Below, in pieces: positions 1-64,000 of a stretch of DNA of 64,000 bases. This DNA is from Escherichia phage EPIMRB01: the sequence record PQ657784, one strand, 5' to 3'. The stretch's first letter is position 1. Every line of letters starts with the position of its first letter. Made by a program: the position numbers and the translations under genes. The notes below the pieces were generated by a model. The model searched no databases, had not been told where the DNA came from, and saw only the letters and a list, made by a program, of their open reading frames with translations.

Positions 1-171
1 AACTTCCAACCAGTAATGGGATTCAAAACTCGTTACGGTATCGGTATCAACCCATTTGCAGAATCCGCTGCTCAGGCTCCGGCTTCTCGCATCCAGAGCG
101 GTATGCCTTCTATTCTGAATAGCCTTGGTAAAAACGCTTACTTCCGCCGTGTATATGTTAAAGGTATCTAA
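1..171 (+). CDS. 23: Major capsid protein gp23, C-terminal end (5' part lies outside window)
   Basis: Frame open from window edge, ends ...NAYFRRVYVKGI* at 169-171; lies directly upstream of gene 24 as in T-even phages. Confidence 0.8.
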   Translation, partial: NFQPVMGFKTRYGIGINPFAESAAQAPASRIQSGMPSILNSLGKNAYFRRVYVKGI

Positions 172-186
172 TCTTTGACGATTTAA

Positions 187-215
187 GGGACCTTCGGGTC
201 CCTTTAGTTGTTTTT
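187..215 (+). terminator. Rho-independent terminator after gene 23
   Basis: Stem GGGACC, loop TTCG, stem GGTCCC, followed by T-rich run. Confidence 0.65.
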
Positions 216-219
216 ATGG

Positions 220-227
220 TATAAATA
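220..227 (+). promoter_or_regulatory. T4-type late promoter box TATAAATA upstream of gene 24
   Basis: Exact TATAAATA about 28 nt upstream of the gene 24 ATG; late promoters of T4 are defined by this box. Confidence 0.6.
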
Positions 228-254
228 AATCATATAAACCAAAAGGAAAGCGCA

Positions 255-1538
255 ATGGCTAAAATCAACGAACTTCTGCGCGAATCAACCACAACGAATA
301 GCAACTCAATCGGTCGCCCAAATCTCGTTGCTTTGACTCGCGCTACCACTAAATTAATATATTCTGACATTGTAGCAACGCAAAGAACTAATCAACCTGT
401 TGCTGCTTTTTATGGTATCAAATACCTTAACCCAGATAACGAATTTACATTTAAAACTGGTGCTACTTACGCCGGCGAAGCTGGGTATGTAGACCGAGAA
501 CAAATCACAGAATTAACAGAAGAGTCTAAATTAACTCTCAATAAAGGCGATTTATTCAAATATAATAATATCGTTTATAAAGTATTAGAAGATACACCAT
601 TTGCTGATATTGAAGAAAGCGATTTAGAATTAGCTCTTCAGATTGCAATCGTTCTTTTAAAGGTTCGTCTATTTTCTGATGCTGCAGTAACAAGCAAATT
701 TGAAAGCTCTGATAGTGAAATTGCGGATGCTAGATTCCAGATTAATAAATGGCAAACCGCAGTTAAATCTCGTAAACTTAAAACTGGCATCACAGTTGAA
801 TTAGCACAAGATTTAGAAGCAAATGGATTCGATGCTCCTAATTTCTTGGAAGATTTGCTTGCAACCGAAATGGCGGATGAAATCAATAAAGATATTCTGC
901 AGTCTTTGATTACAGTATCAAAACGCTATAAAGTTACAGGAATTACTGATACTGGATTCATTGATTTGAGTTATGCATCTGCACCTGAAGCTGGTCGTTC
1001 ATTATACCGAATGGTATGCGAAATGGTTTCACATATCCAGAAAGAATCAACTTATACTGCAACGTTCTGTGTTGCTTCAGCTCGTGCCGCTGCGATTCTT
1101 GCTGCATCAGGTTGGTTAAAACATAAACCAGAAGATGACAAATATCTTTCACAAAATGCCTACGGGTTCTTAGCTAATGGTTTACCGCTTTATTGCGATA
1201 CCAACAGCCCATTAGATTATGTAATCGTGGGTGTAGTAGAAAATATAGGTGAAAAAGAAATTGTTGGATCAATTTTCTATGCTCCGTATACAGAAGGCCT
1301 TGACTTAGATGACCCTGAACATGTAGGTGCATTTAAAGTTGTAGTTGATCCAGAAAGTTTGCAGCCATCTATCGGTTTATTAGTTAGATATGCTTTATCT
1401 GCAAATCCTTACACTGTAGCAAAAGATGAAAAAGAAGCAAGAGTAATTGACGGTGGAGACATGGATAAAATGGCGGGTCGTTCAGATTTGTCTGTTTTAT
1501 TAGGTGTTAAGCTACCAAAAATTATCATTGATGAATAA
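255..1538 (+). CDS. 24: Head vertex protein gp24
   Basis: 427 aa, same length as T4 gp24; ATG preceded by AAGGAAAG; position after gene 23. Confidence 0.93.
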   Translation: MAKINELLRESTTTNSNSIGRPNLVALTRATTKLIYSDIVATQRTNQPVAAFYGIKYLNPDNEFTFKTGATYAGEAGYVDREQITELTEESKLTLNKGDLFKYNNIVYKVLEDTPFADIEESDLELALQIAIVLLKVRLFSDAAVTSKFESSDSEIADARFQINKWQTAVKSRKLKTGITVELAQDLEANGFDAPNFLEDLLATEMADEINKDILQSLITVSKRYKVTGITDTGFIDLSYASAPEAGRSLYRMVCEMVSHIQKESTYTATFCVASARAAAILAASGWLKHKPEDDKYLSQNAYGFLANGLPLYCDTNSPLDYVIVGVVENIGEKEIVGSIFYAPYTEGLDLDDPEHVGAFKVVVDPESLQPSIGLLVRYALSANPYTVAKDEKEARVIDGGDMDKMAGRSDLSVLLGVKLPKIIIDE

Positions 1539-1545
1539 AACAAAG

Positions 1546-1566
1546 GGACCTTTCGGTCCCTTTTTA
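1546..1566. terminator. Stem-loop between convergent genes 24 (+) and rnlB (-)
   Basis: GGGACC-TTTC-GGTCCC flanked by A-run and T-run, usable in both orientations. Confidence 0.6.
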
Positions 1567-1567
1567 T

Positions 1568-2572
1568 TTAACTTACCAATTCAATCCAAGCCGGACGAAG
1601 TACATCTTGTACCATTTTAACTAATTCCTTTTTAACCAAAGAAGGACTATCCGCTTGAGTTAGAGTAATACCTTCACGAGAAGTTTCTTCCAAAATATCT
1701 TGAACAGTTAGTCCCATCACCTTTCCAAAATCTTTTGGACCAATTTCGCCAATTTTAGAAATAACGTTATTTACTCGGTTCAGTGTAACGTAACAAGCTA
1801 AAATTCCCACCAATTTGTTATCAGCTTCTGACAGTTCAACTTTAGCTTTAATAGGCTTATCAGACTTTTTCTTTTCACTAAATTTAGAGTTCTTGCATTT
1901 GATGGCTACACGATTGCGATTAGGCAGCCAAGAAGGATAACAAGGTTTCAATACATATCCTTCAGCGGTAAATACTTCGCCTTTTGCTTCGGCATTCCAA
2001 ACGCATTTATTTGCATCAACTAATCCAGCGTGGTCTACCGTAAAATTATAATCTTGGACGACGGAATCTAAATCATTTGGCAATTTAATAAGTTCTTCAA
2101 ATTTACCGCGACCTAAAAGTGGAGCCATTTTAAATTTAAATGTATTACAGAATGATTCCATCATATAATCATCGACATAAGTCACATCACCACTTTCTGT
2201 AGTAACAATAATGTCAAATACATAAAAATCTTTATCGCCATAATCGACATTCTTCTGAATGCCAGGTCCAGCGAATTCGCCAAAGACTTGATAAGATACA
2301 ACCGCTGAAGTTTCCATAATATCTTGTACTGCTTTAATGGAATCAGCGTAATTCTTTAAAACAATTTCATACCCAAAGAAATCTTCAGCAGGAAGAATAG
2401 GACCAGTGCGTTTAGCACAAGTTACTTTATCACGCTCAATAATCAATGAGAAATTTGTGCCGTGAATCTTTTCACGAGCTACCCATTCGCCGCCAGTCAA
2501 TCCTAAACTGTAAAGTTTTTCAATAAATTTAGAGTTGTAATGATTTTCAAGACTGCTATACTTTTTAAACAT
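1568..2572 (-). CDS. rnlB: RNA ligase 2 (Rnl2)
   Basis: 334 aa as in T4 Rnl2; N-terminal nucleotidyltransferase motif I KIHGTN (adenylylated lysine). Confidence 0.92.
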
Positions 2573-3151: not shown

Positions 3152-4570
3152 TTATGGATAGGTATAGATGATACCAGTTTCTAAAGCAGTTTTATGAATG
3201 ATGTATCCATTACGTGATTCTTGAACATCAACTTCTGGATAGTCTTTCATCATCTTCTGAAGGGTGTAACGATGCAGGTAGTATTTACTATCTGGATCTT
3301 CAGTTTTCCAATCTTTACCTTCTTCAGTCATTTTTTGGATTTCATCCATAACCCACCAACCGCACCAGATATAAGCTGAAGTACGATGTGGAAGAGGATG
3401 AACATAAGGCAATTCACCTTCTGGTTCTGGAGCAACTTTATCAGTTACCTGAACTTGACCTTCTGCTGTGATAGTTTTGCTATCATAATCAGTAGCAGTA
3501 ACAGTTGCAGTAACTTCAATAGTTTGACTTCCAATAGATGATGTATCAACAGTGTATACATTAGTTGACCCTTCTACTGGAGAAGAATCTTTCTTCCATG
3601 AATATTCGATTTGTGCTTCTTCTGGAGCATCCGTAACATTAGCAGTAAATGTAGCCGAAGCATCTTGCTGAACGTTAATAGAAGGAGGAGTCAATGTAAC
3701 CTGTGGATTCATTGTCTTCTTATTAACTGTCAATGATACTTCATTAGAAGTAACTTCCTTTTCATTGTAATTTTCAGCCGTTACTTGGGCTACACACTTA
3801 ACTGTTTTAGCTCCAACTGTGGTAGGAGTATAGTTAAATGTAGTAGTAGTTTCTCCATCGACCAGAGAACCGTCAACATACCACTGATACGTAGCAGACG
3901 CTCCATCGGGTTGAGAAACTAAGGCAGCAGTAAATTGAACTGGGGTTCCAATAACTCCTGCTGGAGGATTAGCAGGAGTTACGGCTAACGTAGTTGTCTG
4001 TGTTTTCTTATTAACAGTCAGTGACACTTCATTAGAAGTAACTTCCTTTGCATCATAATCTGTCGCGGTTACTTGAGCTACACACTTAATTGTTTTAACT
4101 CCGCTTGCGTCAGGAGTGTAATTGAATGTAGTGCCAGTTGCTTCGCCCACAGGAGAACCGTCAACGTACCATTGATATGTAGCGTTTGCACCTGATGGCT
4201 GTGAAGCTAAGGCAGCGGTAAATTCAATTGGAGTTCCAATCACTCCAGCATCAGGGCTACCAGGAGTTACAGCTAAAGTAGTTGTTTGTGTCTTATTTTG
4301 AACTGTGATAGTTGTACTAATTTCTGCTGTTTCAGGTTCAGATTCTGCAACTTGATTGGTTGCAACTACTTTAATAGTCTTTTGACCGGCAGGTCCTTTT
4401 AGTACATAACTAAAAGTTGCTGACGTTTCTTCCTGTGGAGCGTCGTCTACAGTCCAAGCATATGTAATAGGTCCATCTCCAGTTTGACCACTGGGTGTAG
4501 CAGTAAACTGCTGAGTCTGATCTATAACTCCAGTAGGTGTTTTAGGAGTTATATCAACTGTAAAAGTCAT
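3152..4570 (-). CDS. hoc: Highly immunogenic outer capsid protein Hoc, variant with four tandem Ig-like domains plus C-terminal capsid-binding domain
   Basis: 472 aa; N-terminus MTFTVDITPKTPTGVID and C-terminus ...HKTALETGIIYTYP as in T4 Hoc; internal 96-aa repeat present twice. Confidence 0.9.
   Translation of the reverse strand: MTFTVDITPKTPTGVIDQTQQFTATPSGQTGDGPITYAWTVDDAPQEETSATFSYVLKGPAGQKTIKVVATNQVAESEPETAEISTTITVQNKTQTTTLAVTPGSPDAGVIGTPIEFTAALASQPSGANATYQWYVDGSPVGEATGTTFNYTPDASGVKTIKCVAQVTATDYDAKEVTSNEVSLTVNKKTQTTTLAVTPANPPAGVIGTPVQFTAALVSQPDGASATYQWYVDGSLVDGETTTTFNYTPTTVGAKTVKCVAQVTAENYNEKEVTSNEVSLTVNKKTMNPQVTLTPPSINVQQDASATFTANVTDAPEEAQIEYSWKKDSSPVEGSTNVYTVDTSSIGSQTIEVTATVTATDYDSKTITAEGQVQVTDKVAPEPEGELPYVHPLPHRTSAYIWCGWWVMDEIQKMTEEGKDWKTEDPDSKYYLHRYTLQKMMKDYPEVDVQESRNGYIIHKTALETGIIYTYP
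3719..4294 (-). repeat. Two tandem 288-bp units encoding near-identical Ig-like domains inside hoc
   Basis: Unit 1 at 4007-4294 and unit 2 at 3719-4006, roughly 80-85 percent nucleotide identity; both begin KTQTTTLAVTP and end EVTSNEVSLTVNK. Confidence 0.85.
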
Positions 4571-16314: not shown

Positions 16315-16344
16315 ATTATAACACAACACGAGGGACTTGTAAAC
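16315..16344 (-). promoter_or_regulatory. T4 early-type promoter
   Basis: Minus strand GTTTACA, 17-nt spacer, TATAAT. Confidence 0.6.
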
Positions 16345-18401
16345 TACATCTTGAACTTTTTAGACATTCCGTTGATGTTAACCAAAGAAGCCAAGATTTG
16401 AGAAACTTCGTTTTCCTCTTCTTTTGATTCTTCTACAAGGAATTGATTAAACCCAGCCATTGGACGAACTTCACCAGTTTCCATTAGATGATCGCCATCA
16501 TATACCGATTCTTCTAATTGTTCAGAAGGAGGAACGATTGTGCCTTCGATTAGATACTTGTTATAAGCAGTTTCTTTCATCATGTACGTGCTTACTTTAT
16601 TAATCTTCAACAAAATTCCACGCGGTAGAATAACTTCAGCTTCTGATGGAAATCCTGATAAATGACCTGGAACGATAACTTTGATTCGCTCAGCCCCTTT
16701 AATTACCATACCTACACTAGTTTCAGCATCTTCATTAGCATATGCAGAATGACTACCCATATGCATTAAATCTTCGGCATCAACGGAACCTTCTCCTTCA
16801 CCAGAAAATACTGCACCGGAATCATCTAGAGCCATATAGTTTTTACCATGCTCACCGAAGATATTTGGTTTAAGCGATGTTGATACGAAGTTCTTGAAAT
16901 AGAACATTTTATTTTCAATATTATGGCGTAAAGTTTTAAAAGTAACTTCTTGACCACGATAAAGCGTAGTTCCCGGAGGAAGAACTGATCCTTTGGCGAA
17001 TGCAGAATCCATTGTCTCGATGTGTTTAATAGCTCGTTCCATGTATTCTTCACGGGTAGAATCTGGTTTACCTAAAAGGAACGAGTTCATTTCAACATAT
17101 GAATCTGCACAATAATCTTCAATTACATCAGACTCAGCCTGAGTCAGTCCTTTTGGAGTTACTTCGGTGCTTGCGTATTCATATGCCTGAGCAGCAGATT
17201 CATTAATCAATTTATAAATGCCATTCATGACAAATTGAATAATAGCTACCTTTTCGTCTGGCGTGGCTTTAGAACCTTTAACTAAATCATTGATAATTTT
17301 CTTAATAACATCAAAGCTATTAGAAATATTAATGTCAGCGAGATCGCTCAAAATTTTATCTGTTTTATAATCAAAGAATTCTTTATTCTTTAAATATTCT
17401 TGAGAACCTTGATGTGTTATATCGCTCTGCAGTCTGATAGACGGATCACGTAAACGCGCATGGGCCAATGCAATATGATTTCGGAAGCTTTCTAGTTCAT
17501 AATCGTTAGATTTAAAACGAGAAGCACTTCTCATACCACCGATAGCTCCTTTGCCGAAGTTTGAACCAATCTGAATAACGCCAGAGTTCATTGGTCCTTC
17601 TGCTTTATATACCGGAACTTTAGATTCAAACTCTTGATATTTCTTAGCAGCGAAGCTATCGCCCTGGAGTGAAGCATCGACAGTAGAATATTGAGCTTGT
17701 GCTGCTAATCGACGACTAATTTTAGTTTTCTGAATAACAGCTTGATCCGTGCGCTTATCATTTTCTAAAGCAATAGAAGCAGCAACAGCAACAGCTTTAG
17801 GAACAGCATTACCTGTTTTGACATCTACATAAACATCACCAACCTTTGATTCAACTTTTGTGAATAACTCAGTTGAAATAGGAGGTACACCTGGAATGTC
17901 TTCTAAATTGGCATTTTTACGGTAAACCATAATATATGCATACTTTTTATCGTAATCCCAGATTTCCTTTAAAAGAACATATCGACCTGCTCCTTTAGTA
18001 CGTACTAAACGGTCAGCAATAACTTGCATTTGACGAGCAGCGCCATTTGTTTTACTTTTTAGTACGCGGAATAAGCATGCATCAATTTTATACTGTTTCA
18101 TTGTTTGAAGAGCAGTATCAAAAACAGCATTAATGACACCAATTGGATTTCCACCCAAGTTTTTAAGTTTAACTAATGATAGTTTCTCATTAACACCTAT
18201 CATTACGATATGCATCATTTTATCGCCTGGCTTAACGTTTTTATTTGTATCACCGCCAGAGGTGTATGTACAAAATCTAAATCCAGGAAGCACGCTTTCT
18301 TCACCAGCTTGAATAGCAAAAATTTGAGGTATTTTATGCTTAGGATTTAAGTTAACAACCGGCGCCGAAGCGCCGTCAAATAATTCTGTAATAAGTTCCA
18401 T
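16344..18401 (-). CDS. Alt-family ADP-ribosyltransferase paralog
   Basis: 685 aa; N-terminus MELITELFDG..PQIF..GFRFCTYTSGGDTN shared with Alt; C-terminal R-S-E triad motifs LYRGQ, NFVSTS, SEAEVILPRG; SD AAGGA; 3 nt after alt stop. Confidence 0.85.
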   Translation of the reverse strand: MELITELFDGASAPVVNLNPKHKIPQIFAIQAGEESVLPGFRFCTYTSGGDTNKNVKPGDKMMHIVMIGVNEKLSLVKLKNLGGNPIGVINAVFDTALQTMKQYKIDACLFRVLKSKTNGAARQMQVIADRLVRTKGAGRYVLLKEIWDYDKKYAYIMVYRKNANLEDIPGVPPISTELFTKVESKVGDVYVDVKTGNAVPKAVAVAASIALENDKRTDQAVIQKTKISRRLAAQAQYSTVDASLQGDSFAAKKYQEFESKVPVYKAEGPMNSGVIQIGSNFGKGAIGGMRSASRFKSNDYELESFRNHIALAHARLRDPSIRLQSDITHQGSQEYLKNKEFFDYKTDKILSDLADINISNSFDVIKKIINDLVKGSKATPDEKVAIIQFVMNGIYKLINESAAQAYEYASTEVTPKGLTQAESDVIEDYCADSYVEMNSFLLGKPDSTREEYMERAIKHIETMDSAFAKGSVLPPGTTLYRGQEVTFKTLRHNIENKMFYFKNFVSTSLKPNIFGEHGKNYMALDDSGAVFSGEGEGSVDAEDLMHMGSHSAYANEDAETSVGMVIKGAERIKVIVPGHLSGFPSEAEVILPRGILLKINKVSTYMMKETAYNKYLIEGTIVPPSEQLEESVYDGDHLMETGEVRPMAGFNQFLVEESKEEENEVSQILASLVNINGMSKKFKM

Positions 18402-18404
18402 GAT

Positions 18405-20498
18405 TTATCCTTGAACGAACTTGTAAGGCATGTTTGTAATATCTATGCAAGACGCAATAATTCCAAGAGATGATTCTACTTTCTGTTTAACATTTGATGA
18501 AACAAATGATGCAAAATCAACTCTGTCTTCTATTTCAATATCACCTGTCATTGCAACTACTTCACCAGTTTCCATTAGACGGTCACCGTCATAAATTACT
18601 GATTCGGTGAGTTCTTCCGTAGTCATAACTTCAGCTTGAATGAGTTTTGTATTATTAGATGTTGTTCCGTCATTATTAGAAGCATCAGTTATTTTATTAA
18701 CTTTGACCATCAATCCGCGTGGTAGAATAACTTCAGCTTCTGTTGCTATTCCGAGACTTCCTGGATATACAACATTAACTTTATGAGCTCCATCAATTGC
18801 CCATCCTATTTGAACTTTAACGTATTCAGGATTTTCTTTATACGCTCTTATTTCATTTGGATTAATAGTTATTCCTTCTTCATTTTTATCAACTGTCAAT
18901 TCATTACGAGCTTCTGGTTCTAAAAGACCAATACCAGCATGTGTAATTCCAAAACGTCCAAAAATGATAGGAGTTAAAGAAGTAGATACAAAATTTCTGA
19001 AATAGAACACTTTATTTTTAACTAGTGCTTCGTATATAGGAGCAGTCATACTTTGAGCACGATAAACTGTAATGCCTTCTGGTATACGGTCACCATTTTC
19101 AAAAGCTGAATCTAAGTTATTTATAGCAGATTCAATTTCTTTTTCACTCATTACATCATATCGTTCTGGATTGTAGCGTCCTAAAAGAAGATTATTGATG
19201 TCAGTATATCCTGAACCGCAATACTCTCTAATGCCGCGCTTTTGTGATGGAGTATATTTAGAACCATCACGGGCAATAGTAATATCAATCATTGGACCTG
19301 CACCAATTCCAGAAAAGCTATAAATCATTCGTTTGAGGAATTTAGTTTTTGCTGCGTTCCAGGAATTTTTAGTTATTTCTTCCCAGACTTCATCTGGCTG
19401 TCCTTTACGGGTTTTATTATGTTTATCAAGCCAATTATCTTTATATTCTTCAAAGAGTTGATTAACAGCTGCTGCGTATTTTTCTAAACATTTTATTGAA
19501 GTAGTTGGTTCATTTTTAATCGCATTAAGAATTACATCTTTAATTTTTTCAGAAACTTCACCAACCTCACTCATTGGAAAGAATTTATAGTCATAATGAA
19601 GTTCATCTGCAGTTCCTTCAGCAATAATTTTTGCTGCCTTAGTTTTAGAAGCTAATGAATTAATTCCAAGCTTCATTTCTTCTGCTTCGGGAATTAAAGG
19701 AGCTGTAGCAGGTTTATTGAAATTAGCTGCGGTAGATTCATACTTTTGGAATAATTCACTTTCAAATCTAGAAGATTCCAATGACTGACTTTGTGCAATT
19801 GCTCTACGGGAAATTTTAACTTTAACGATTACAGCTTGGTCAGAACGTTTATCGTTTTCTTGTGCAATAGATGCGGCAATTGCCTCATTTTTAGTTACTT
19901 GAGCTCCGGTATCTTTATTGATATAAACATCACCGACCTTCGATTCAACTTTAGTAAAGAGCTCGGTACTAATTTCAGGAACTCCTGGAATGTCTTCTAA
20001 TGATACATTTTTGCGATGTATAAGAATATATGCATACTTTTTATCGTAATCCCAGAGTTCCTTAAGAAGGACGTATCTGCCACCTGAACGACTACGGATA
20101 AGTCTATCAGCAATAAGTTGAATTTGACGAGCTTGACCAGCAGTTTTAGACTTAAGAATACGGAGCATACAGGCATCAATTTTATACTGACGCATCGTCT
20201 GCATCGCAACAGTAAAAACTGAATTGATGTAATTAATTGGGCTTGGACCGAGACCTTTTAATTTAGCAATTGAACCTTTGGCAGTTAATGTAAAAGGAAC
20301 AATATGCATCATTTTATCGCCCATCTTTAAATCGCGATTAGTATCACCTCCAGATGTATAGGTACATAAACGAAAGCCTGGTTGTTCAATTGCGTCATCA
20401 ACATGAACTGAAAAAATTTGCGGTATTTTCTTCTTTGGATTTAAGTTTGTAATCGGAAGAGTAGTATCTTCGTCAAATAATTCTGTAATGAGTTCCAT
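18405..20498 (-). CDS. alt: Alt ADP-ribosyltransferase (capsid-packaged, injected)
   Basis: 697 aa from second ATG (MELITELFDEDTTLPITNL...), colinear with T4 Alt; ART motifs YRAQ, NFVSTS, EAEVILPRG. Confidence 0.9.
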   Translation of the reverse strand: MELITELFDEDTTLPITNLNPKKKIPQIFSVHVDDAIEQPGFRLCTYTSGGDTNRDLKMGDKMMHIVPFTLTAKGSIAKLKGLGPSPINYINSVFTVAMQTMRQYKIDACMLRILKSKTAGQARQIQLIADRLIRSRSGGRYVLLKELWDYDKKYAYILIHRKNVSLEDIPGVPEISTELFTKVESKVGDVYINKDTGAQVTKNEAIAASIAQENDKRSDQAVIVKVKISRRAIAQSQSLESSRFESELFQKYESTAANFNKPATAPLIPEAEEMKLGINSLASKTKAAKIIAEGTADELHYDYKFFPMSEVGEVSEKIKDVILNAIKNEPTTSIKCLEKYAAAVNQLFEEYKDNWLDKHNKTRKGQPDEVWEEITKNSWNAAKTKFLKRMIYSFSGIGAGPMIDITIARDGSKYTPSQKRGIREYCGSGYTDINNLLLGRYNPERYDVMSEKEIESAINNLDSAFENGDRIPEGITVYRAQSMTAPIYEALVKNKVFYFRNFVSTSLTPIIFGRFGITHAGIGLLEPEARNELTVDKNEEGITINPNEIRAYKENPEYVKVQIGWAIDGAHKVNVVYPGSLGIATEAEVILPRGLMVKVNKITDASNNDGTTSNNTKLIQAEVMTTEELTESVIYDGDRLMETGEVVAMTGDIEIEDRVDFASFVSSNVKQKVESSLGIIASCIDITNMPYKFVQG

Positions 20499-44857: not shown

Positions 44858-47800
44858 ATGGCCGAGATTAAAAGAAAGTTCAGAGCAGAAGATGGTCTGG
44901 ACGCAGGTGGCGATAAAATAATCAACGTAGCTTTAGCTGATCGTGCCGTAGGAACTGACGGTGTTAACGTTGATTACCTAATTCAAGAAAACACAGTTCA
45001 ACAATATGATCCAACTCGTGGATATTTAAAAGATTTTGTAATCATTTATGATAACCGCTTTTGGGCTGCTATAAATGATATTCCAAAACCAGCAGGAGCT
45101 TTTAATAGTGTACGCTGGAGAGCATTACGTACTGATGCTAATTGGACAACTGTTTCATCAGGACCTTATCAATTAAAGTCAGGCGAATCAATTTCAGTTG
45201 ATACTGCAGCTGGTAATGACATTACATTTACTTTGCCATCTTCTCCAATTGATGGAGATACTATCGTTCTTCAAGATATTGGTGGAAAACCTGGTGTTAA
45301 CCAAGTTTTAATTGTAGCTCCAGTGCAAAGTATTGTAAACTTCAGAGGCGAACAAGTACGTTCAGTACTAATGACTCATCCAAAATCGCAGATAGTTTTA
45401 ATTTTTAGTAATCGTCTGTGGCAAATGTATGTTGCTGATTATAGCAGAGAAGCTGTAGTCGTAACACCGGCAAGTCTTTATCAGGCGCAATCTAACGATT
45501 TTATCGTGCGCAGATTTACTTCAGCCGCGGCGATTAATATTAAACTTCCGAGATTTGCTAATCATGGCGATATTATTAATTTCGTCGATTTAGACAAATT
45601 AAATCCACTTTATCATACAATTGTTACTACATACGATGAAACAACTTCAGTGCAAGAAGTTGGAACTCATTCCATTGAAGGCCGTACATCGATTGATGGT
45701 TTCTTGATGTATGATGATAATGAAAAATTGTGGAGATTGTTTGACGGGGATAGTAAAGCACGTTTACGTATTATAACAACTAATTCTAGTATTCGTCCAA
45801 ATGAAGAAGTTATGGTATTTGGAGCGAATAACGGAACAACCCAAACAATTGAACTTCAGCTTCCGACCGATATTTCCATTGGCGATACTGTTAAAATTTC
45901 CATGAATTACATGAGAAAAGGCCAAACAGTTAAAATCAAAGCTGCCGGTGAAGATAAAATTGCTTCTTCAGTTCAATTGCTGCAATTCCCAAAACGTTCA
46001 GAATATCCGCCTGAAGCTGAATGGGTGACTGTTCAAGAATTAGTTTTTAATGGTGAAACTAATTATGTTCCAGTTTTACAACTTGCTTATATAGAAGATT
46101 CTGACGGAAAATACTGGGTTGTACAGCAAAACGTGCCAACAGTTGAAAGAGTTGATTCTTTAAATGATTCTACTAGAGCAAGATTAGGCGTAATTGCTTT
46201 AGCTACACAAGCTCAAGCTAACGTCGATTTAGAAAATTCTCCACAAAAAGAATTAGCAATTACTCCAGAAACATTAGCTAACCGTACTGCTACAGAAACT
46301 CGTAGAGGTATCGCAAGAATAGCAACTACCGCCCAAGTGAATCAGGATACTACATTCTCTTTTGCTGATGATATTATCATCACTCCTAAAAAGTTGAATG
46401 AAAGAACTGCTACAGAAACTCGTAGAGGTGTTGCTGAAATTGCTACGCAACAAGAAACTAATACAGGTACTGATGATACTACAATCATCACTCCTAAAAA
46501 GCTTCAAGCTCGACAAGGTTCTGAGTCATTATCTGGTATTGTAACCTTTGTATCTACTGCAGGAGCTACTCCAGCTTCTAGTCGTGAATTAAATGGTACA
46601 AACGTTTATAATAAAAACACTAATAATTTAGTTGTTTCGCCTAAAGCTTTGGATCAGTATAAAGCTACTCCAACGCAACAAGGTGCAGTAATTCTAGCAG
46701 TCGAAAGTGAAGTAATTGCTGGACAAAGCCAAGAAGGATGGGCAAATGCGGTTGTAACGCCAGAAACGTTACATAAAAAGACATCAACTGATGGAAGAAT
46801 TGGTTTAATTGAAATTGCTACGCAAAGTGAAGTTAATACAGGAACTGATTATACACGTGCAGTCACTCCTAAAACTTTAAATGACCGTAGAGCAACTGAA
46901 AGTTTAAGTGGTATAGCTGAAATTGCTACACAAGTTGAATTCGACGCAGGCGTCGACGATACTCGTATCTCTACACCATTAAAAATTAAAACTAGATTTA
47001 ATAGTACTGATCGTACTTCTGTTGTTGCTCTATCTGGATTAGTTGAATCAGGAACTCTCTGGGACCATTATACCCTTAATATTCTTGAAGCAAATGAGAC
47101 ACAGCGTGGTACACTTCGTGTAGCTACACAGGTCGAAGCTGCTGCAGGAACATTAGATAATGTTTTAATAACTCCTAAAAAGCTTTTAGGTACTAAATCT
47201 ACTGAAGCGCAAGAAGGTGTTATTAAAGTTGCAACTCAGTCTGAAACTGTGACTGGAACGTCGGCAAATACTGCTGTATCTCCAAAAAATTTAAAATGGA
47301 TTGTGCAGAGTGAACCTACTTGGGCAGCTACTACTGCGATAAGGGGCTTTGTTAAAACTTCATCTGGTTCAATTACATTCGTTGGTAATGATACAGTAGG
47401 TTCTACCCAAGATTTAGAACTGTATGAGAAAAATAGTTATGCAGTATCACCATATGAATTAAATCGTGTATTAGCAAATTATCTGCCGTTAAAAGCAAAA
47501 GCTGTAGATAGTAATTTATTGGATGGTCTAGATTCATCTCAGTTCATTCGTAGGGATATTGCACAGACGGTTAATGGTTCACTAACCTTAACCCAACAAA
47601 CGAATCTGAGTGCCCCTCTTGTATCATCTAGTACTGCTACGTTCGGTGGTTCAGTTACAGCAAATAGTGTACTAACTATTTCTAATACTGGAACAGAAAC
47701 TCATCTGATTTTTGAGAAAGGACCTCAAACTGGAACTAACCAAGCACAGACGGTGACTATTAGAGTGTGGGGTAATCAATTTAGTGGGGAATCAAACACA

Positions 47801-48727
47801 ACACGTTCTACCGTATTTGAAGTTAGTGATGAAACATCTTATCACTTTTATTCTCAACGCGATAAAGATGGTAATATAGCATTTAGCATTAATGGTACTG
47901 TAATGCCAATAAATGTGAATGCTTTAGGAACATTGAATGCAAATGGTGTAGCAACATTTGGTAATTCAGTCACTGCAAGTGGTGAAATTATTTCTCGAAG
48001 CGCAAATGCTTTCCGTGCTATTAACGGAAATTATGGTTTTATTGTTCGCAATGACGGGTCAGTAACGAATTTTATGCTTACTGCATCGGGCGATCAGACT
48101 GGTGGATTTAATGGATTACGTCCATTAACTATTAATAATGCATCTGGTCAAGTAACGATTGGTGAAAGCTTAATCATTGCCAAAGGTGCTACTATAAATT
48201 CAGGCGGTTTGACTGTTAACTCGAGAATTCGTTCTCAGGGTACTAAAACATCTGATTTATATACCCGCGCACCAACATCTGATACTGTAGGATTCTGGTC
48301 AATCGATATTAACGATTCAGCCACTTATAACCAGTTCCCGGGTTATTTTAAAATGGTTGAAAAAACTAATGAAGTGACTGGACTTCCATACTTAGAACGT
48401 GGCGAAGAAGTTAAATCTCCTGGTACACTGACTCAGTTTGGTAACACACTTGATTCGCTTTACCAAGATTGGATTACTTATCCAATAACACCAGAAGCGC
48501 GTACCACTCGTTGGACGCGTACATGGCAGAAAACCAAAAACTCTTGGTCAAGCTTTGTTCAGGTATTTGATGGAGGTAACCCTCCTCAGCCATCTGATAT
48601 CGGTGCTTTACCATCTGATAATGCTATAATGGGGAATCTTACTATTCGTGATTTCTTACGAATTGGTAATGTTCGCATTATTCCTGACCCAGTGAATAAA
48701 ACGGTTAAATTTGAATGGGTTGAATAA
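44858..48727 (+). CDS. 34: Long tail fibre proximal subunit gp34
   Basis: 1289 aa as in T4 gp34; repetitive beta-rich sequence. Confidence 0.95.
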   Translation: MAEIKRKFRAEDGLDAGGDKIINVALADRAVGTDGVNVDYLIQENTVQQYDPTRGYLKDFVIIYDNRFWAAINDIPKPAGAFNSVRWRALRTDANWTTVSSGPYQLKSGESISVDTAAGNDITFTLPSSPIDGDTIVLQDIGGKPGVNQVLIVAPVQSIVNFRGEQVRSVLMTHPKSQIVLIFSNRLWQMYVADYSREAVVVTPASLYQAQSNDFIVRRFTSAAAINIKLPRFANHGDIINFVDLDKLNPLYHTIVTTYDETTSVQEVGTHSIEGRTSIDGFLMYDDNEKLWRLFDGDSKARLRIITTNSSIRPNEEVMVFGANNGTTQTIELQLPTDISIGDTVKISMNYMRKGQTVKIKAAGEDKIASSVQLLQFPKRSEYPPEAEWVTVQELVFNGETNYVPVLQLAYIEDSDGKYWVVQQNVPTVERVDSLNDSTRARLGVIALATQAQANVDLENSPQKELAITPETLANRTATETRRGIARIATTAQVNQDTTFSFADDIIITPKKLNERTATETRRGVAEIATQQETNTGTDDTTIITPKKLQARQGSESLSGIVTFVSTAGATPASSRELNGTNVYNKNTNNLVVSPKALDQYKATPTQQGAVILAVESEVIAGQSQEGWANAVVTPETLHKKTSTDGRIGLIEIATQSEVNTGTDYTRAVTPKTLNDRRATESLSGIAEIATQVEFDAGVDDTRISTPLKIKTRFNSTDRTSVVALSGLVESGTLWDHYTLNILEANETQRGTLRVATQVEAAAGTLDNVLITPKKLLGTKSTEAQEGVIKVATQSETVTGTSANTAVSPKNLKWIVQSEPTWAATTAIRGFVKTSSGSITFVGNDTVGSTQDLELYEKNSYAVSPYELNRVLANYLPLKAKAVDSNLLDGLDSSQFIRRDIAQTVNGSLTLTQQTNLSAPLVSSSTATFGGSVTANSVLTISNTGTETHLIFEKGPQTGTNQAQTVTIRVWGNQFSGESNTTRSTVFEVSDETSYHFYSQRDKDGNIAFSINGTVMPINVNALGTLNANGVATFGNSVTASGEIISRSANAFRAINGNYGFIVRNDGSVTNFMLTASGDQTGGFNGLRPLTINNASGQVTIGESLIIAKGATINSGGLTVNSRIRSQGTKTSDLYTRAPTSDTVGFWSIDINDSATYNQFPGYFKMVEKTNEVTGLPYLERGEEVKSPGTLTQFGNTLDSLYQDWITYPITPEARTTRWTRTWQKTKNSWSSFVQVFDGGNPPQPSDIGALPSDNAIMGNLTIRDFLRIGNVRIIPDPVNKTVKFEWVE

Positions 48728-48735
48728 GAGGTATT

Positions 48736-49851
48736 ATGGAAAAATTTATGGCAGAGTTTGGACAAGGATACGTCCAAACGCCATTTTTATCGGAAAGTAA
48801 TTCAGTAAGATACAAAATAAGTATAGCGGGTTCTTGCCCGCTTTCTACCGCAGGACCATATGTTAAATTTCAGGATAATCCTGTAGGAAGTCAAACATTT
48901 AGCGCAGGTCTTCATTTAAGAGTTTTTGATCCTTCTACAGGATCATTAGTTGATAGTAAGTCATATGCTTTTTCTACTTCAAATGATACTACATCAGCTG
49001 CTTTTGTTAGTTTCATGAATTCTTTGACGAATAATAGAATTGTTGCTATATTAACTAGTGGAAAGGTTAATTTTCCTCCTGAAGTAGTATCTTGGTTAAG
49101 AACCGCCGGAACGTCTGCTTTTCCATCTGACTCTATATTGTCAAGATTCGACGTATCATATGCTGCTTTTTATACTTCTTCTAAAAGAGCTATTGCATTA
49201 GAGCATGTTAAATTAAGTAATAGAAAAAGCACAGATGATTATCAAACTATTTTAGATGTTGTATTTGACAGTTTAGAAGACGTCGGAGCTACCGGGTTTC
49301 CAAGAAGAACATATGAAAGCGTTGAGCAATTTATGTCAGCGGTTGGTGGAACCAATAACGAAATTGCGCGTCTACCAACTTCAGCTGCTATAAGTAAACT
49401 TTCTGACTACAATTTAATTCCTGGCGATGTTCTTTATCTTAAAGCACAACTATATGCTGATGACGATTTACTTTCTCTTGGAACTACTAATATATCCATT
49501 AGATTTTATAATGAATCGGATGGATATATTTCTTCAACATACGCTGAGTTTACCGGTCAAGCTGGGTCATGGGAATTAAAGGAAGACTATGTAGTTGTTC
49601 CTGAAAATGCGGTAGGATTTACGATATATGCACAAAGAACTGCCCAAGCAGGTCAAGGCGGCATGAGAAATTTAAGCTTTTCTGAAGTATCAAGAAATGG
49701 CGGCATTTCAAAACCTGCTGAATTTGGCGTCAACGGTATTCGCGTTAATTATGTCTGTGAATCCGCTTCACCTCCAGATATAATGGTACTTCCTACACAA
49801 GCATCGTCTAAAACTGGTAAAGTGTTTGGACAAGAATTTAGAGAAGTATAA
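48736..49851 (+). CDS. 35: Long tail fibre hinge connector gp35
   Basis: 371 aa; SD AAGAGG; synteny 34-35-36. Confidence 0.9.
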   Translation: MEKFMAEFGQGYVQTPFLSESNSVRYKISIAGSCPLSTAGPYVKFQDNPVGSQTFSAGLHLRVFDPSTGSLVDSKSYAFSTSNDTTSAAFVSFMNSLTNNRIVAILTSGKVNFPPEVVSWLRTAGTSAFPSDSILSRFDVSYAAFYTSSKRAIALEHVKLSNRKSTDDYQTILDVVFDSLEDVGATGFPRRTYESVEQFMSAVGGTNNEIARLPTSAAISKLSDYNLIPGDVLYLKAQLYADDDLLSLGTTNISIRFYNESDGYISSTYAEFTGQAGSWELKEDYVVVPENAVGFTIYAQRTAQAGQGGMRNLSFSEVSRNGGISKPAEFGVNGIRVNYVCESASPPDIMVLPTQASSKTGKVFGQEFREV

Positions 49852-49913: not shown

Positions 49914-50697
49914 ATGGCTGATTTAAAAGTAGGTTCAACAACCGGAGGCTCTGTCATTTGGCATCAAGGAAATTTTCCATTGAATCCAGCCGGTGACGAT
50001 GTACTCTATAAATCATTTAAAATATATTCAGAATATAATAAACCGCAAGCTGCTGATAACGATTTCGTTTCTAAAGCTAATGGTGGTACTTATTTAAATA
50101 AAGTAATTTTTAATAAAGGAATGACTGTTCCTGGCGCAGGGTCAGGTGATAATGGTATTTTTGCTGGTCCTGGTGATAGTGCCACGTATGATACTACAAA
50201 TATGGATATTGTTTCGTGGTATGGTATTGGTTTTAAATCATCACAAGGAACAGCAGGTAGAACTGTAGTAATTAACACGCGAAATGGAGATATTAGCTCA
50301 AAGGGCGTAATTGAAGCATCACAAATCCGTGTAACTTCGTTATCACCAGTAAATAATTATGACCTTACGCGGAAAGATTATGTTGATGGAGCAATAAATA
50401 TTGTTACCGCAAACGCAAACTCTAGCAAAGGGCGTAATTGAAGCATCACAAATCCGTGTAACTTCGTTATCACCAGTAAATAATTATGACCTTACGCGGA
50501 AAGATTATGTTGATGGAGCAATAAATATTGTTACCGCAAACGCAAACTCTAGGGTATTACGCTCTGGAGACACTATGACAGGAAATTTAACTGCGCCAAA
50601 CCTTTTTTCACAGAATCCTGCATCTCAACCTTCACATGTTCCACGATTTGATCAAATTGTTATTAAGGATTCTGTTCAAGATTTCGGCTATTATTAA
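49914..50697 (+). pseudogene. 36: Long tail fibre protein gp36, reading frame broken by an internal 127-bp tandem duplication
   Basis: Frame 1 (49914-50441) ends ...TANANSSKGRN*; the C-terminal 48 codons (RVLRSGDTMTGNL...QDFGYY) continue in another frame to 50697; removing one repeat copy gives a single ORF of about 218 codons. Confidence 0.8.
50299..50552 (+). repeat. Perfect direct tandem duplication, 2 x 127 bp
   Basis: 50299-50425 and 50426-50552 are identical base for base (caaagggcgtaattgaag...caaactctag). Confidence 0.9.
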
Positions 50698-50705
50698 GAG
50701 GACTT

Positions 50706-53700
50706 ATGGCTACTTTAAAACAAATACAATTTAAAAGAAGCAAAACTGCAGGAGCACGTCCTGCCGCTTCAGTATTAGCCGAAGGTGAATTGGCTATAAA
50801 CTTAAAAGACCGTGTACTTTTTACTAAAGATGACCAAGGAAATATTATTGATCTGGGTTTTGCTAAAGGCGGTAGTATTGACGGGAATGTTATTCATACA
50901 GGCAATTATAACCAAACTGGCGATTATACTTTAAATGGCACCTTCACTCAGACTGGTAATTTTAATTTAACTGGTATTGCTCGAGTAACTCGCGATATTA
51001 TTGCCGCTGGGCAGATTATGACTGAAGGCGGAGAACTTATTACAAAAAGTTCAGGTACAGTGCATGTTCGTTTTTTCGATAACAATAGTCGCGAACGCGG
51101 AATCATTTATGCCCCGGCTAATGATGGTTTAACTACACAAGTACTTAATATCAGGGTTCAAGACTACGCCGCTGGTAGCGAAAGCACTTATGCATTTTCA
51201 GGCAGTGGACTATTTACTTCACCTGAAGTATCAGCATGGAAATCTATTTCGTCTCCACAAATTCTAACCAACAAAGTCATTACTAATAATAAATCTACTG
51301 GTGATTATGACATCTATTCGATGGCAGACAATGTTCCATTGTCTGAAAGCACTACTGCTATTAATCATCTTCGTGTCATGCGTAATGCCGTTGGTTCTGG
51401 TATTTTCCATGAAGTTAAAGATAATGATGGAATAACTTGGTATGCAGGTGATGGACTTGACACCTATCTTTGGTCATTTACTTGGAGCGGCGGAATTAAA
51501 TCGAGTCACTCAATTTCTATTGGTTTAACACCTGGTAATAAAGATTATTCAATATTAGGACCATCTAGTATTGCTTTAGGAGATAATGATACTGGATTTA
51601 AATGGCATCAAGATGGATATTATTTTAGCGTTAATAATGGAACAAAAACGTTTTTATTTAGTCCTAGCGAAACAACTAGCCTAAGAAAATTTGTAGCTGG
51701 ATATTCTACTAACGGAACCGATTTAACTACTCCTCCAACTGAAAACTATGCTCTCGCTACTGTCGTGACATATCACGATAATAACGCGTTTGGAGATGGT
51801 CAGACTCTTTTAGGATATTATCAAGGCGGTAATTATCATCACTATTTCCGCGGTAAAGGTACTACAAACATTAATACTCATGGCGGTTTGTTAGTTACTC
51901 CAGGTAATATTGATGTTATTGGCGGTTCTGTTAATATAGATGGTAGAAATAATTCTTCTACACTAATGTTTAGAGGCAACACAACAGGATACAGCTCGGT
52001 TGATAATATGGATATTAAAGTTTGGGGTAATACGTTTGTTGATCCAAGCGGAGGTATCCGTAAAAACATTATGGAAATTTCTGATGCAACTAGCTGGATG
52101 AGCTATATTCAAAGACTTACTACTGGCGAAGTAGAAATGAACGTTAATGGTTCATTTGAATCATCTGGTGTTACTGCTGGAGATAGAGGAGTTCACACAA
52201 CAGGTGAAATTTCATCTGGGGCTGTGAATGCGCTTCGTATTTGGAACGCAGATTATGGAGCTATTTTTAGACGTTCAGAAGGCAGTCTTCATATTATTCC
52301 AACTGCTTACGGTGAAGGTAAACATGGTGATATCGGTCCACTTCGCCCGTTTAGTATGGCTTTAGATACCGGTAAAGTTACTATTCCAGATTTACAATCA
52401 AGTTACAATACGTTTGCTGCTAACGGTTATATTAAATTTGTTGGTCATGGAGCGGGTGCCGGCGGTTATGACATTCAATATGCTCAAGCGGCTCCTATTT
52501 TCCAGGAAATTGATGATGATGCTGTAAGCAAATATTATCCTATTGTTAAACAGAAGTTTTTAAATGGTAAAGCTGTTTGGTCTTTAGGTACTGAAATTAG
52601 TTCAGGTACATTCGTTATTCATCATCTGAAAGAAGATGGTTCACAAGGCCATACGTCTCGTTTTAATCAAGACGGTACTGTTAACTTCCCAGATAACGTT
52701 TCTGTCGGCGGCGGTGAAGCTACTATTGCTCGCAATGGTAATATCTGGTCTGATATCTGGAAAACGTTTACTTCAGCAGGCGACGTAACTAATATTCGCG
52801 ATGCAATAGCTACTCGTGTTGCTAAAGAAGGTGATACGATGACCGGTAGGTTGACTTTATCTGCTGGAAATGATGCCCTTGTTTTAACTGCAGGCACGGG
52901 CGCTTCATCGCACATCCGTAGTGATGTAGGTGGTACAAATAATTGGTTTATAGGCAAAGGCGGCGGCGACAATGGTCTAAGTTTTTACAGTTACATTACA
53001 CAAGGCGGTGTGAACATAACAAATAACGGCGAAATAGCGCTTTCTCCTCAAGGACAAGGAGCGTTTAATTTTAATAGAGACCGCCTTCATATAAACGGTA
53101 CACAATGGACCGCACACCAGGCTGGCGATTGGGGAAATCAATGGCGCCAGGAAGCTCCTGTATTTGTGGATTTTGGTAATGTCGGTAATGATAGTTATTA
53201 TCCTATTATTAAAGGAAAATCTGGTATTACTAATGAAGGGTATATATCTGGTGTAGATTTTGGTATGCGACGCATTCCTAATAACTGGGCACAAGGTATT
53301 ATTCGTGTAGGTAATCAGGAAAACGGTTCCGACCCACAAGCTATCTTCGAATTCCACCATAATGGAAACATGTACGTTCCTGACATGGTTAAAGCTGGAG
53401 TAAGAATATCAGCTGGTGGAGGTGACCCTGCATGGACAGACGCATGTGTTGTTATTGGTGATAATGACACCGGATTAGTTCATGGTGGTGACGGCCGAAT
53501 CAATATGGTTGCCAATGGTATACATATTGCTTCATGGTCGTCCGCTTACCATCTCCATGAAGGTCTTTGGGATACTACTGGTGCTTTGTGGACTGAGCAA
53601 GGAAGAGCTATTATTTCTTTTGGTCATTTAATCCAACAGAGTGATGCCTATTCTACGTTTGTCCGTGATGTTTATGTCCGCTCTGATATTCGTGTTAAAA

Positions 53701-54017
53701 AAGACCTCGTTAAATTTGAAAATGCTTCTGAAAAGCTTTCTAAAATTAACGGTTACACTTATATGCAGAAACGTGGAACTGACGAAGAAGGTAATCAGAA
53801 ATGGGAACCTAACGCCGGTTTAATTGCTCAAGAAGTTCAAGCTATTTTACCAGAATTAGTTGAAGGCGACCCGGATGGTGAAGCTTTACTTCGTTTGAAC
53901 TATAACGGTGTAATTGGTTTAAATACAGCTGCAATCAATGAGCATACTGCAGAAATTGCGGAACTTAAATCAGAAATTGAAGAACTTAAAGCATTAGTTA
54001 AATCATTGTTAAAATAA
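50706..54017 (+). CDS. 37: Long tail fibre distal subunit gp37 with C-terminal intramolecular-chaperone-like domain
   Basis: 1103 aa; last ~111 aa (SDIRVKKD...[14 protein letters not shown]...coiled coil) resemble the autoproteolytic chaperone domain of phage fibres/tailspikes. Confidence 0.9.
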
Positions 54018-54048: not shown

Positions 54049-54825
54049 ATGGCAGTAACAGGACCGTGGGTAGGATCGTCTGCAGTAGTTAATACAGGAC
54101 AAAATTGGATGGGTGGTGCCGCGCAGAGATTGAGAATGGGAATTCCGTTTTGGATGAGTAATATGATAGGTCGATCTGTTGAAATAATTCACACGCTTGG
54201 AGCAGACCATAACTTCAATGGTCAATGGTTCCGAGATAGATGTTTTGAGGCAGGTAGTGCACCTATAGTGTTTAATATCACTGGAGATTTAGTATCATAT
54301 TCTAAAGATGTTCCTTTATTCTTCATGTATGGAGATACACCCAATGAATATGTTCAGTTGAATATACACGGCGTAACGATGTATGGTCGTGGCGGTAATG
54401 GCGGTAGCAATAGTCCTGGCTCAGCTGGAGGTCATTGTATTCAAAACGATATTGGTGGGAGACTAAGAATTAATAATGGTGGAGCTATTGCAGGCGGCGG
54501 TGGCGGCGGTGGCGGCGGATATTATTCTCCTTTTTCACAAATGAGATTGACCTTTGGCGGCGGCGGTGGGCGTCCGTTTGGTGCACCTGGCGGATCTATT
54601 GATATGCAATCAGGAGCGACTGGCGGTACTATTTCTGCACCTGGCTCAGGATCCGTGAATGGTATCTATAATGGTGGAAACGGTGGTGAAGTAGGTTCCG
54701 CGGGAGGTAGATGCAATATTCGCGGTCAAGGATCTGAATATAATGGCGGCGATGCTGGTTATGCCGTCATAGGGTCCGCTCCAACGTGGATAAATGTTGG
54801 AGCAATATATGGTCCAAGAGTATAA
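54049..54825 (+). CDS. 38: Tail fibre tip adhesin gp38 (T2-type, glycine-rich motifs)
   Basis: 258 aa from ATG with SD GGAGG (ORF-track start is a TTG extension); several poly-Gly motifs (GGGGGGGGG, GGGGG) separated by variable segments. Confidence 0.85.
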
Positions 54826-63052: not shown

Positions 63053-63989
63053 ATTTAAATTGTTCAGTAACGTCTTCAACTACTTCGTATTGACAGGTAC
63101 GCATTTTAGCATCGTTGTAATCAATCGGAATTGATACTACATCGCGAGGATGAACTTTAACTTTTACAACTCGACTAGTTGAACCACCGAAGTGACGAAT
63201 ATAAGATTTAGAACACACATGCAGACCACGAGAACAAGTTTGTGTATCATCGTCATTCACACGAGTACGCGGCATTTTAACTACTTTACCCGGACTGTTA
63301 TCAAAGGTATTTGAGTGACAGTCAAAGTAATTGCTGCGAACTACTTTCCAAGCATAGAAGTAACCATCTTCTGTAATTTCAATATCGTTTGCTACCAAGA
63401 AATCAAAGAGTCGAGATACCGCTTTCTGGCTTGGGTTTTCCAGCAGATTTTCCAAGAACGGAAAATAAAATTCAAAGTTTTCGCCTTTTTCCATCGAATC
63501 AAGAATACGATCAACCAAACCAGACCGCAATTCAATATTTTGATAGAACAAGCTTCCACCTTCAATTCGAACATCGCCGGAAATATATTTTTCAACAGCG
63601 CGACGAACATTAATTTTTTGTGCCGCTTCTTCTAACTTATCTGCTACGAGCAGATTAAGAATTTCCTGGAAGTTTGAATGAGTATTAGGTGTTGCATTAT
63701 AAGTTACACCATCAACAGTAATCGAAATGAATTTTTTAGATGCATTCCAAATAATGTCAGATTTAGCAACTGGAGCAATAACTGCATCGCTATTAACTTT
63801 AACTGTAATATCACCGCTAATAGTAATTTTAGAGTGTTTAGCTTCTTCAGCATTTTTCAAAACACGACGGATTGTATCAACCGATACACCTTGCCAATCA
63901 GCCAATTCCTGCTGAGTATAATTACCGCTTGAATACAGTTTAACAATTTCAGCTTGTTCGTTTTTGGTCAGGCATTTAATATTGTACAT
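63051..63989 (-). CDS. rIIB: rIIB membrane-associated protein
   Basis: 312 aa as in T4 rIIB; start MYNIKCLTKNEQAEIVKLY. Confidence 0.9.
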   Translation of the reverse strand: MYNIKCLTKNEQAEIVKLYSSGNYTQQELADWQGVSVDTIRRVLKNAEEAKHSKITISGDITVKVNSDAVIAPVAKSDIIWNASKKFISITVDGVTYNATPNTHSNFQEILNLLVADKLEEAAQKINVRRAVEKYISGDVRIEGGSLFYQNIELRSGLVDRILDSMEKGENFEFYFPFLENLLENPSQKAVSRLFDFLVANDIEITEDGYFYAWKVVRSNYFDCHSNTFDNSPGKVVKMPRTRVNDDDTQTCSRGLHVCSKSYIRHFGGSTSRVVKVKVHPRDVVSIPIDYNDAKMRTCQYEVVEDVTEQFK

Positions 63990-64000
63990 AATTTTCCTTA

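Follow-up and report, generated by a model that had tools for sequence, protein, structure and literature searches.

The perfect 127-bp tandem duplication that splits the long-tail-fibre gene 36 in the sequence record of Escherichia phage EPIMRB01 is, in our view with high confidence, not a mutation of the phage but an end overlap of the assembler SPAdes (k = 127) that became internal when the contig was rotated; the real phage almost certainly contains a single copy of the 127-bp unit and encodes an intact gp36 of 218 aa. The analysis concerned a stretch of 64,000 nucleotides (hereafter the window, to which positions refer unless stated otherwise). The repeat, the identity with phage AUBRB02, the 127-bp fingerprints in other records and the origin of the record were computed here, and the use of SPAdes and the infectivity of the phage were taken from papers.

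The window corresponds to positions 102871-166870 of PQ657784.1, on the basis of the published CDS coordinates and lengths: the CDSs 147728..151597, 151606..152721, 152784..153311, 153445..153567 and 153576..156887 (Suppl. Table S1, PMC13295566) equal the coordinates of five open reading frames (ORFs) of the window plus 102,870, and they place the pair of 175-aa and 40-aa gp36 products at the same offset. The possibility that the repeat had been added artificially to the window was considered and rejected, as the GenBank annotation already shows the 175-aa/40-aa split at matching coordinates.

The repeat and the reading frames of gene 36

String comparison demonstrated that 50299-50425 is followed without a gap by 50426-50552 and that the two stretches agree at 127 of 127 bases, and Tandem Repeats Finder returned a period of 127, 2.0 copies, 100% matches and a score of 508 for the same region. 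The perfect and adjacent 127-bp duplication that the original prediction had placed at 50299-50552 is therefore present in the sequence, and a perfect repeat of 127 bases cannot have originated by chance. The period-127 identity extends 0 bases past either edge of the repeat, and the junction therefore lacks microhomology. The parts of the repeat are as follows:

50299-50425, plus strand: copy 1 of the 127-bp unit, which is genuine sequence of gene 36 and covers roughly codons 129-171; present singly in AUBRB02 and in all relatives listed
50426-50552, plus strand: copy 2, the redundant 127 bp, read as the k = 127 overlap that SPAdes leaves at the ends of a circular contig and that was kept here
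50406-50445, plus strand: junction of copy 1 and copy 2 (...ACTCTAG/CAAAGGG...), with the break between 50425 and 50426; missing from any single-copy genome

At the junction the letters read ...GCAAACTCTAG/CAAAGGGCGTAAT..., and we interpret the 50425/50426 break as the point where the old end of the contig meets its old start. A search with the junction 40-mer or with a 26-mer (ACGCAAACTCTAGCAAAGGGCGTAAT) gave 0 matches in the IMG/VR viral contigs, the JGI metagenome contigs and the GTDB genome contigs. When an 80-bp query spanning the junction was compared with the phage collection, it matched only as two separate pieces, one at each end of a single-copy unit.

A scan of the window for periods of 20 to 600 identified the gene 36 repeat as the only perfect tandem duplication. 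Elsewhere in the window, the hoc gene on the minus strand contains a 288-bp tandem repeat in two copies with 78% matches (3713-4294), which looks ordinary and fits the repeated Ig-like domains of Hoc. Two adjacent paralogues encoding alt-like ADP-ribosyltransferases, named alt_1 and alt_2 in the AUBRB02 annotation, are also located on the minus strand (16344-18401 and 18405-20498), and share about 71% DNA identity across about 580 bp at their ends.

The region containing the repeat is a T4-type long-tail-fibre module with the synteny 34-35-36-37-38-t, of which the following features are relevant here:

44858-48727, plus strand: gene 34, proximal half-fibre, 1289 aa (EPIMRB01_00248)
48736-49851, plus strand: gene 35, 371 aa (EPIMRB01_00249)
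49914-50441, plus strand: gene 36 ORF as written, 175 aa (GenBank CDS EPIMRB01_00250)
50401-50697, plus strand: ORF of 98 aa with a TTG start at 50401, containing in frame the C-terminal 91 residues of gp36
50575-50697, plus strand: ORF of 40 aa (MTGNL...QDFGYY), corresponding to the gp36 C-terminus and annotated as a CDS of its own (EPIMRB01_00251)
49914-50697, plus strand: extent of the true gene 36, composed of 49914-50425 and 50553-50697 (657 nt, 218 aa)
50706-54017, plus strand: gene 37, 1103 aa (EPIMRB01_00252), for which the paper reports a Peptidase_S74 region at the C-terminus

Gene 37 is followed by a gene for a T2-type gp38 and then by the holin gene t. The gp38 (54049-54825) is a T2-type glycine-rich adhesin in which GGCGGCGGT is repeated 2.9 times at 54493-54518, and the end of gp37 contains a heptad-like 21-bp repeat (53950-53990). 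The combination of a T2-type gp38 adhesin with the Peptidase_S74 region reported for gp37 indicates that the fibre tip is T2-like and not T4-like.

Since 127 = 3 x 42 + 1 (127 mod 3 = 1), the repeat is out of frame, and gene callers, faced with a frameshift, report gp36 as two CDSs of 175 and 40 aa. The 175-aa product is composed of 170 native residues followed by SKGRN and a stop codon (...ANANSSKGRN, then stop), and the normal last 48 codons of gp36 (RVLRSGDTMTG...QDFGYY) are displaced to the +1 frame. The frameshift with its premature stop and the displacement of a 48-codon C-terminus had both been predicted, and both agree with the 175-codon ORF at 49914-50441 and with the frame observed here. 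The additional claim that the shifted frame is devoid of an ATG or a Shine-Dalgarno sequence is incorrect: the ATG at 50575 is preceded by GGAG at 50566-50569, 5 nt upstream, and the TTG at 50401 by GGAG at 50388-50391, 9 nt upstream. It should be noted that both GGAG motifs belong to ordinary codons (for D-G-A and S-G-D) and occur in intact relatives too; their position ahead of the ATG and TTG codons within the gp36 coding sequence explains how the 40-aa fragment came to be called as a CDS by the gene-finding program. The 98-aa ORF would be relevant only if the duplication were real.

Deletion of either 127-bp copy restores gene 36. The restored 218-aa gp36 is identical to CAK6624452.1 of AUBRB02 and matches the Pfam family Phage_T4_gp36 (PF03903) over residues 56-192 with a score of 99.9 bits (E = 1.5e-28), and the 175-aa product covers only positions 1-117 of the 131 positions of this profile. 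An exact-sequence look-up of the 175-aa product returned no gene on record, and the search for solved structures of gp36 returned no sequence-detectable relative in the PDB.

Single-copy relatives and 127-bp redundancies in records from one laboratory

The best match of the window is phage AUBRB02 (OY979771.1); after removal of one 127-bp copy, the window is the same as positions 66885-130757 of this record at 63,873 of 63,873 bases. The duplication is thus the sole difference between the window and AUBRB02, in which gp36 is annotated as an intact protein of 218 aa. Phages AUBRB02 and EPIMRB01 come from the same laboratory/institution, the latter being described in a paper of 2026 (PMC13295566). 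For a broader comparison, gene 36 was examined in the best 40 and in 60 evenly spread rows of the 660 matching phage records, down to about 77% identity. In these 100 relatives the gene 36 span measures 654-693 bp and is single copy, never 787 bp, and each of the 100 homologous genes listed is one uninterrupted ORF. The scenario in which related phages normally carry the repeat in frame, which would have spoken against the original prediction, is therefore not what the 100 relatives listed (of 660) show.

According to the papers, EPIMRB01 (PMC13295566) and AUBRB02 were both sequenced with MiSeq 2x250-bp reads and assembled into single contigs with SPAdes v3.15.5. It has been described that SPAdes turns a circular or circularly permuted genome into a linear contig whose ends overlap by the largest k-mer (Philipson et al.; Paillet et al.), and a 127-bp end overlap is a documented SPAdes artefact, the largest k being 127 for reads of at least 250 bp. 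Artefactual DTRs can come from SPAdes (2026 INPHARED preprint), and in the case of terminally repeated genomes the redundancies may land internally within the contig (Turner et al. 2021, PMC8785237). The period of the gene 36 repeat, exactly 127, equals the largest k of SPAdes for 2x250 reads.

The classical, terminal form of this overlap is present in the AUBRB02 record, where positions 1-127 of OY979771.1 equal positions 166745-166871, an exact 127-bp overlap of suffix and prefix. Since this overlap was left untrimmed, the published length of 166,871 bp exceeds the unique circle of 166,744 bp by 127 bp. An internal form was found in EPIMAM01 (PQ493298.1), which stems from the same paper and pipeline as EPIMRB01. 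The EPIMAM01 record is marked circular and starts with rIIA (complement(11..2188), CDS 00001), which implies that it was rotated to the T4 convention. Across the whole genome and for periods of 20-600, it contains exactly one perfect tandem duplication, which has a period of 127 (156881-157134), is located inside the gene 38 adhesin homologue and frameshifts it. The annotated gene 38 CDS of 250 aa has a nonsense C-terminus (...WRRWRRYRFSSSLW...) and is separated by a gap of 206 nt from holin t; without one of the copies, a gp38 adhesin of 266 aa is restored that ends 31 nt before the holin. In relatives that are up to 99.6% identical to EPIMAM01 the corresponding stretch measures 832 bp, versus 959 bp in EPIMAM01, a difference of 127.

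A 127-bp redundancy is therefore present in three of the three records of the laboratory, at the termini of the unrotated AUBRB02 and internally in the rotated EPIMRB01 and EPIMAM01. The repeats of the latter two are alike in that each is the sole perfect internal 127-bp repeat, frameshifts an essential tail-fibre gene, has no counterpart in relatives and occurs in an rIIA-rotated record. They differ in that the gene affected in EPIMAM01 is gene 38 instead of gene 36, and in that it was annotated as one CDS with a nonsense C-terminus instead of as two CDSs. With respect to the orientation of the EPIMRB01 record, the end of the window is informative:

63987-64000, minus strand: rIIB start codon (63987-63989) and the 11-nt rIIB/rIIA spacer, at the end of the window

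The window end, which is record position 166,870, lies 1 nt before the rIIA stop codon, the origin according to the T4 convention, and its coincidence with the rIIB/rIIA junction suggests that the EPIMRB01 record was re-oriented after assembly. We infer this rotation, a step that the paper does not describe, as well as the actual order of the editing steps.

These observations can be accommodated in the following scheme. SPAdes, when run on 2x250-bp reads with k = 127, would write a circular genome with the same first and last 127 bases. The EPIMRB01 contig would have been opened by chance inside gene 36, and would start with CAAAGGGCGTAATTGAAG... and finish with ...GCAAACGCAAACTCTAG, having the same 127 bases at both ends. 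Upon rotation to the rIIA start, the old end would have been joined to the old start with the overlap untrimmed, and the terminal redundancy would in this way become a perfect and adjacent internal repeat of 127 bp, at an arbitrary place and without homology at its endpoints. The EPIMRB01 repeat shares with the terminal overlap of SPAdes (the 'artefactual 127-bp DTR') its 127-bp length, perfect identity, arbitrary position, assembler and read length. However, the SPAdes overlap is terminal in its classical form, whereas the redundancy in EPIMRB01 is internal and resembles a frameshifting tandem duplication, presumably because the overlap had not (yet) been trimmed off when the contig was rotated to the rIIA start.

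One observation counts against reading the repeat as an artefact. The internal breakpoints of EPIMRB01 (position 153,295 of the record; window 50425/50426) and EPIMAM01 (position 157,007; 157007/157008) are about 3.7 kb apart in homologous coordinates and lie in the same tail-fibre module, and the chance of such proximity is roughly 4% on a circle of 167 kb. A branch of the de Bruijn graph at a 127-mer shared through cross-sample reads was considered as the cause of this proximity and rejected, since each of the two 127-mers is missing from the genome of the other phage. The proximity may be a coincidence, or it may be related to within-sample variation in a hypervariable module.

Infectivity of the phage and the case for a real duplication

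In the distal half-fibre of T4, a gp36 trimer attaches to the N-terminal region of gp37 and is then bound by gp35, which completes the structure; infectivity needs at least three long fibres per particle (Leiman et al. 2010, PMC3004832). Phage EPIMRB01 was purified from single plaques three times and forms clear plaques; its adsorption exceeds 50% in 10 min and reaches about 90% by 20 min, and its burst is about 75 PFU per cell (PMC13295566). Such plaque, adsorption and burst data would hardly be expected of a phage whose gp36 lacks the last 48 residues. The prediction that the genome is tail-fibre defective is accordingly not supported, as the phage is infectious. Of the interpretations that had been put forward, the assembly artefact gains support from the single-copy AUBRB02 sequence and from a length that equals the SPAdes k, and a real recent duplication or a defective genome is not supported.

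These phenotypic data also bear on the possibility that the stock was mixed, with wild-type phage acting as helper for a defective mutant whose duplication ended up in the assembled consensus. This had been suggested in the original prediction, and it is in line with the facts that T4-type phages recombine readily and that tandem duplications are unstable. Nevertheless, we consider it very improbable, because three single-plaque purifications preceded sequencing, because a lethal allele cannot form the majority in a plaque, and because a minority allele would not be picked as the consensus at a depth of >300x. Moreover, a mixed stock leaves the length of 127 and the fingerprints in EPIMAM01 and AUBRB02 unaccounted for.

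A genuine and recent duplication of gene 36 could in principle be compatible with infectivity if low-level +1 ribosomal frameshifting generated a gp36 of 260 aa with an in-frame repeat of 42 aa. The deposited sequence does contain the repeat, and the gene 36 frame would be regained by a +1 shift at any point of 50398-50438; the most plausible event is the slipping of tRNA-Lys from AAA (50427-50429) to AAG before the GGG codon, and the predicted frameshift product spans ANANSSKGVIEAS. A real duplication is also favoured by the tolerance of T4-type fibre proteins for in-frame duplications in gene 37. Such tandem duplications in T4 are reportedly in frame and selected for function, and are said to occur in viable mutants with a broader host range. 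They resemble the EPIMRB01 repeat in being tandem and in affecting a long-tail-fibre gene of a T4-type phage. However, the EPIMRB01 repeat is out of frame, lacks homology at its endpoints, has the length of the assembler k and is missing from AUBRB02. A genuine functional fibre duplication would be in frame, or else the phage would be fibre defective, and EPIMRB01 displays neither. A natural event would have had to be exactly 127 bp long, to arise without microhomology at the endpoints, to be absent from an otherwise identical AUBRB02, and to have a second exact 127-bp case in gene 38 of the sibling EPIMAM01.

Rescue by frameshifting meets further objections. The situation recalls the programmed frameshifting of phage tail genes (lambda G/GT), where there are likewise two overlapping frames that can in principle be joined by a shift, but gene 36 of EPIMRB01 has no conserved slippery site or stimulator, and its two-frame arrangement is due solely to the extra 127 bp. 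In addition, the 100 relatives listed each have one ORF, and three plaque purifications combined with normal adsorption and burst disfavour a fibre gene that relies on rare shifting. We therefore regard a duplication rescued by frameshifting as no less improbable than a mixed stock.

Even less likely is a genuine duplication rescued by fragment complementation, in which the 175-aa product and either the 98-aa ORF (TTG 50401) or the 40-aa ORF (ATG 50575) would together form a split gp36. The spacing of 9 nt and 5 nt between the GGAG motifs and the two downstream start codons is workable, and the 98-aa ORF alone clears the Pfam gp36 threshold (31.5 bits for a cut-off of 26). On the other hand, the arguments of coincidence based on the AUBRB02 identity, the AUBRB02 end overlap and the EPIMAM01 repeat apply in the same way, the presence of the GGAG codons in intact relatives means that they are no evidence of adaptation, and a split gp36 is without precedent among the listed rows of the 660 matching records, each of which has a single gene.

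Although candidate sites for frameshifting and for reinitiation exist, no observation favours either form of rescue over the artefact, and the three alternatives taken together account for only a small residual probability. It is very doubtful, in particular, that the duplication is physically present in the stock and that the phage is infectious through a +1 shift at AAA-G (50427-50430) or through the co-assembly of two gp36 fragments; if this were true, it would mean that the fibre connector of T4-type phages tolerates a large insertion or a split.

Implications for the records and for the phage

Reading the repeat as an untrimmed SPAdes overlap has consequences for the public records. Two of them, PQ657784.1 (gene 36) and PQ493298.1 (gene 38), contain 127 surplus bp by which an essential tail-fibre gene is disrupted, and need correction, and so does the genome length of OY979771.1, which has an excess of 127 bp. 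Checks limited to terminal repeats presumably miss overlaps that are hidden by untrimmed rotation. Screening for perfect tandem repeats whose period equals a common k (127, 99, 77, 55) would catch errors of this kind in phage databases.

EPIMRB01 has been presented as a distinct phage, and it is base-for-base identical to the earlier AUBRB02 over the 64-kb window bar the repeat. In the paper on EPIMRB01 (PMC13295566), the phage is reported to be 92.3-94.2% similar to its closest references, and AUBRB02 is cited in the reference list only. EPIMRB01 and AUBRB02 are probably two names for one phage, which may have been re-isolated, carried over or re-used.

In the same 2026 paper (PMC13295566), the split gp36 (175 + 40 aa, '62.6% identity') is taken as localized divergence and as a possible cause of phenotypic differences between the two phages; the gene 38 CDS affected in EPIMAM01 was outside the comparison made there. 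At least the gp36 part of the published divergence appears to be an artefact, and the published interpretation needs correction. Since gene 36 is almost certainly normal in the phage itself, the duplication would be of no biological importance.
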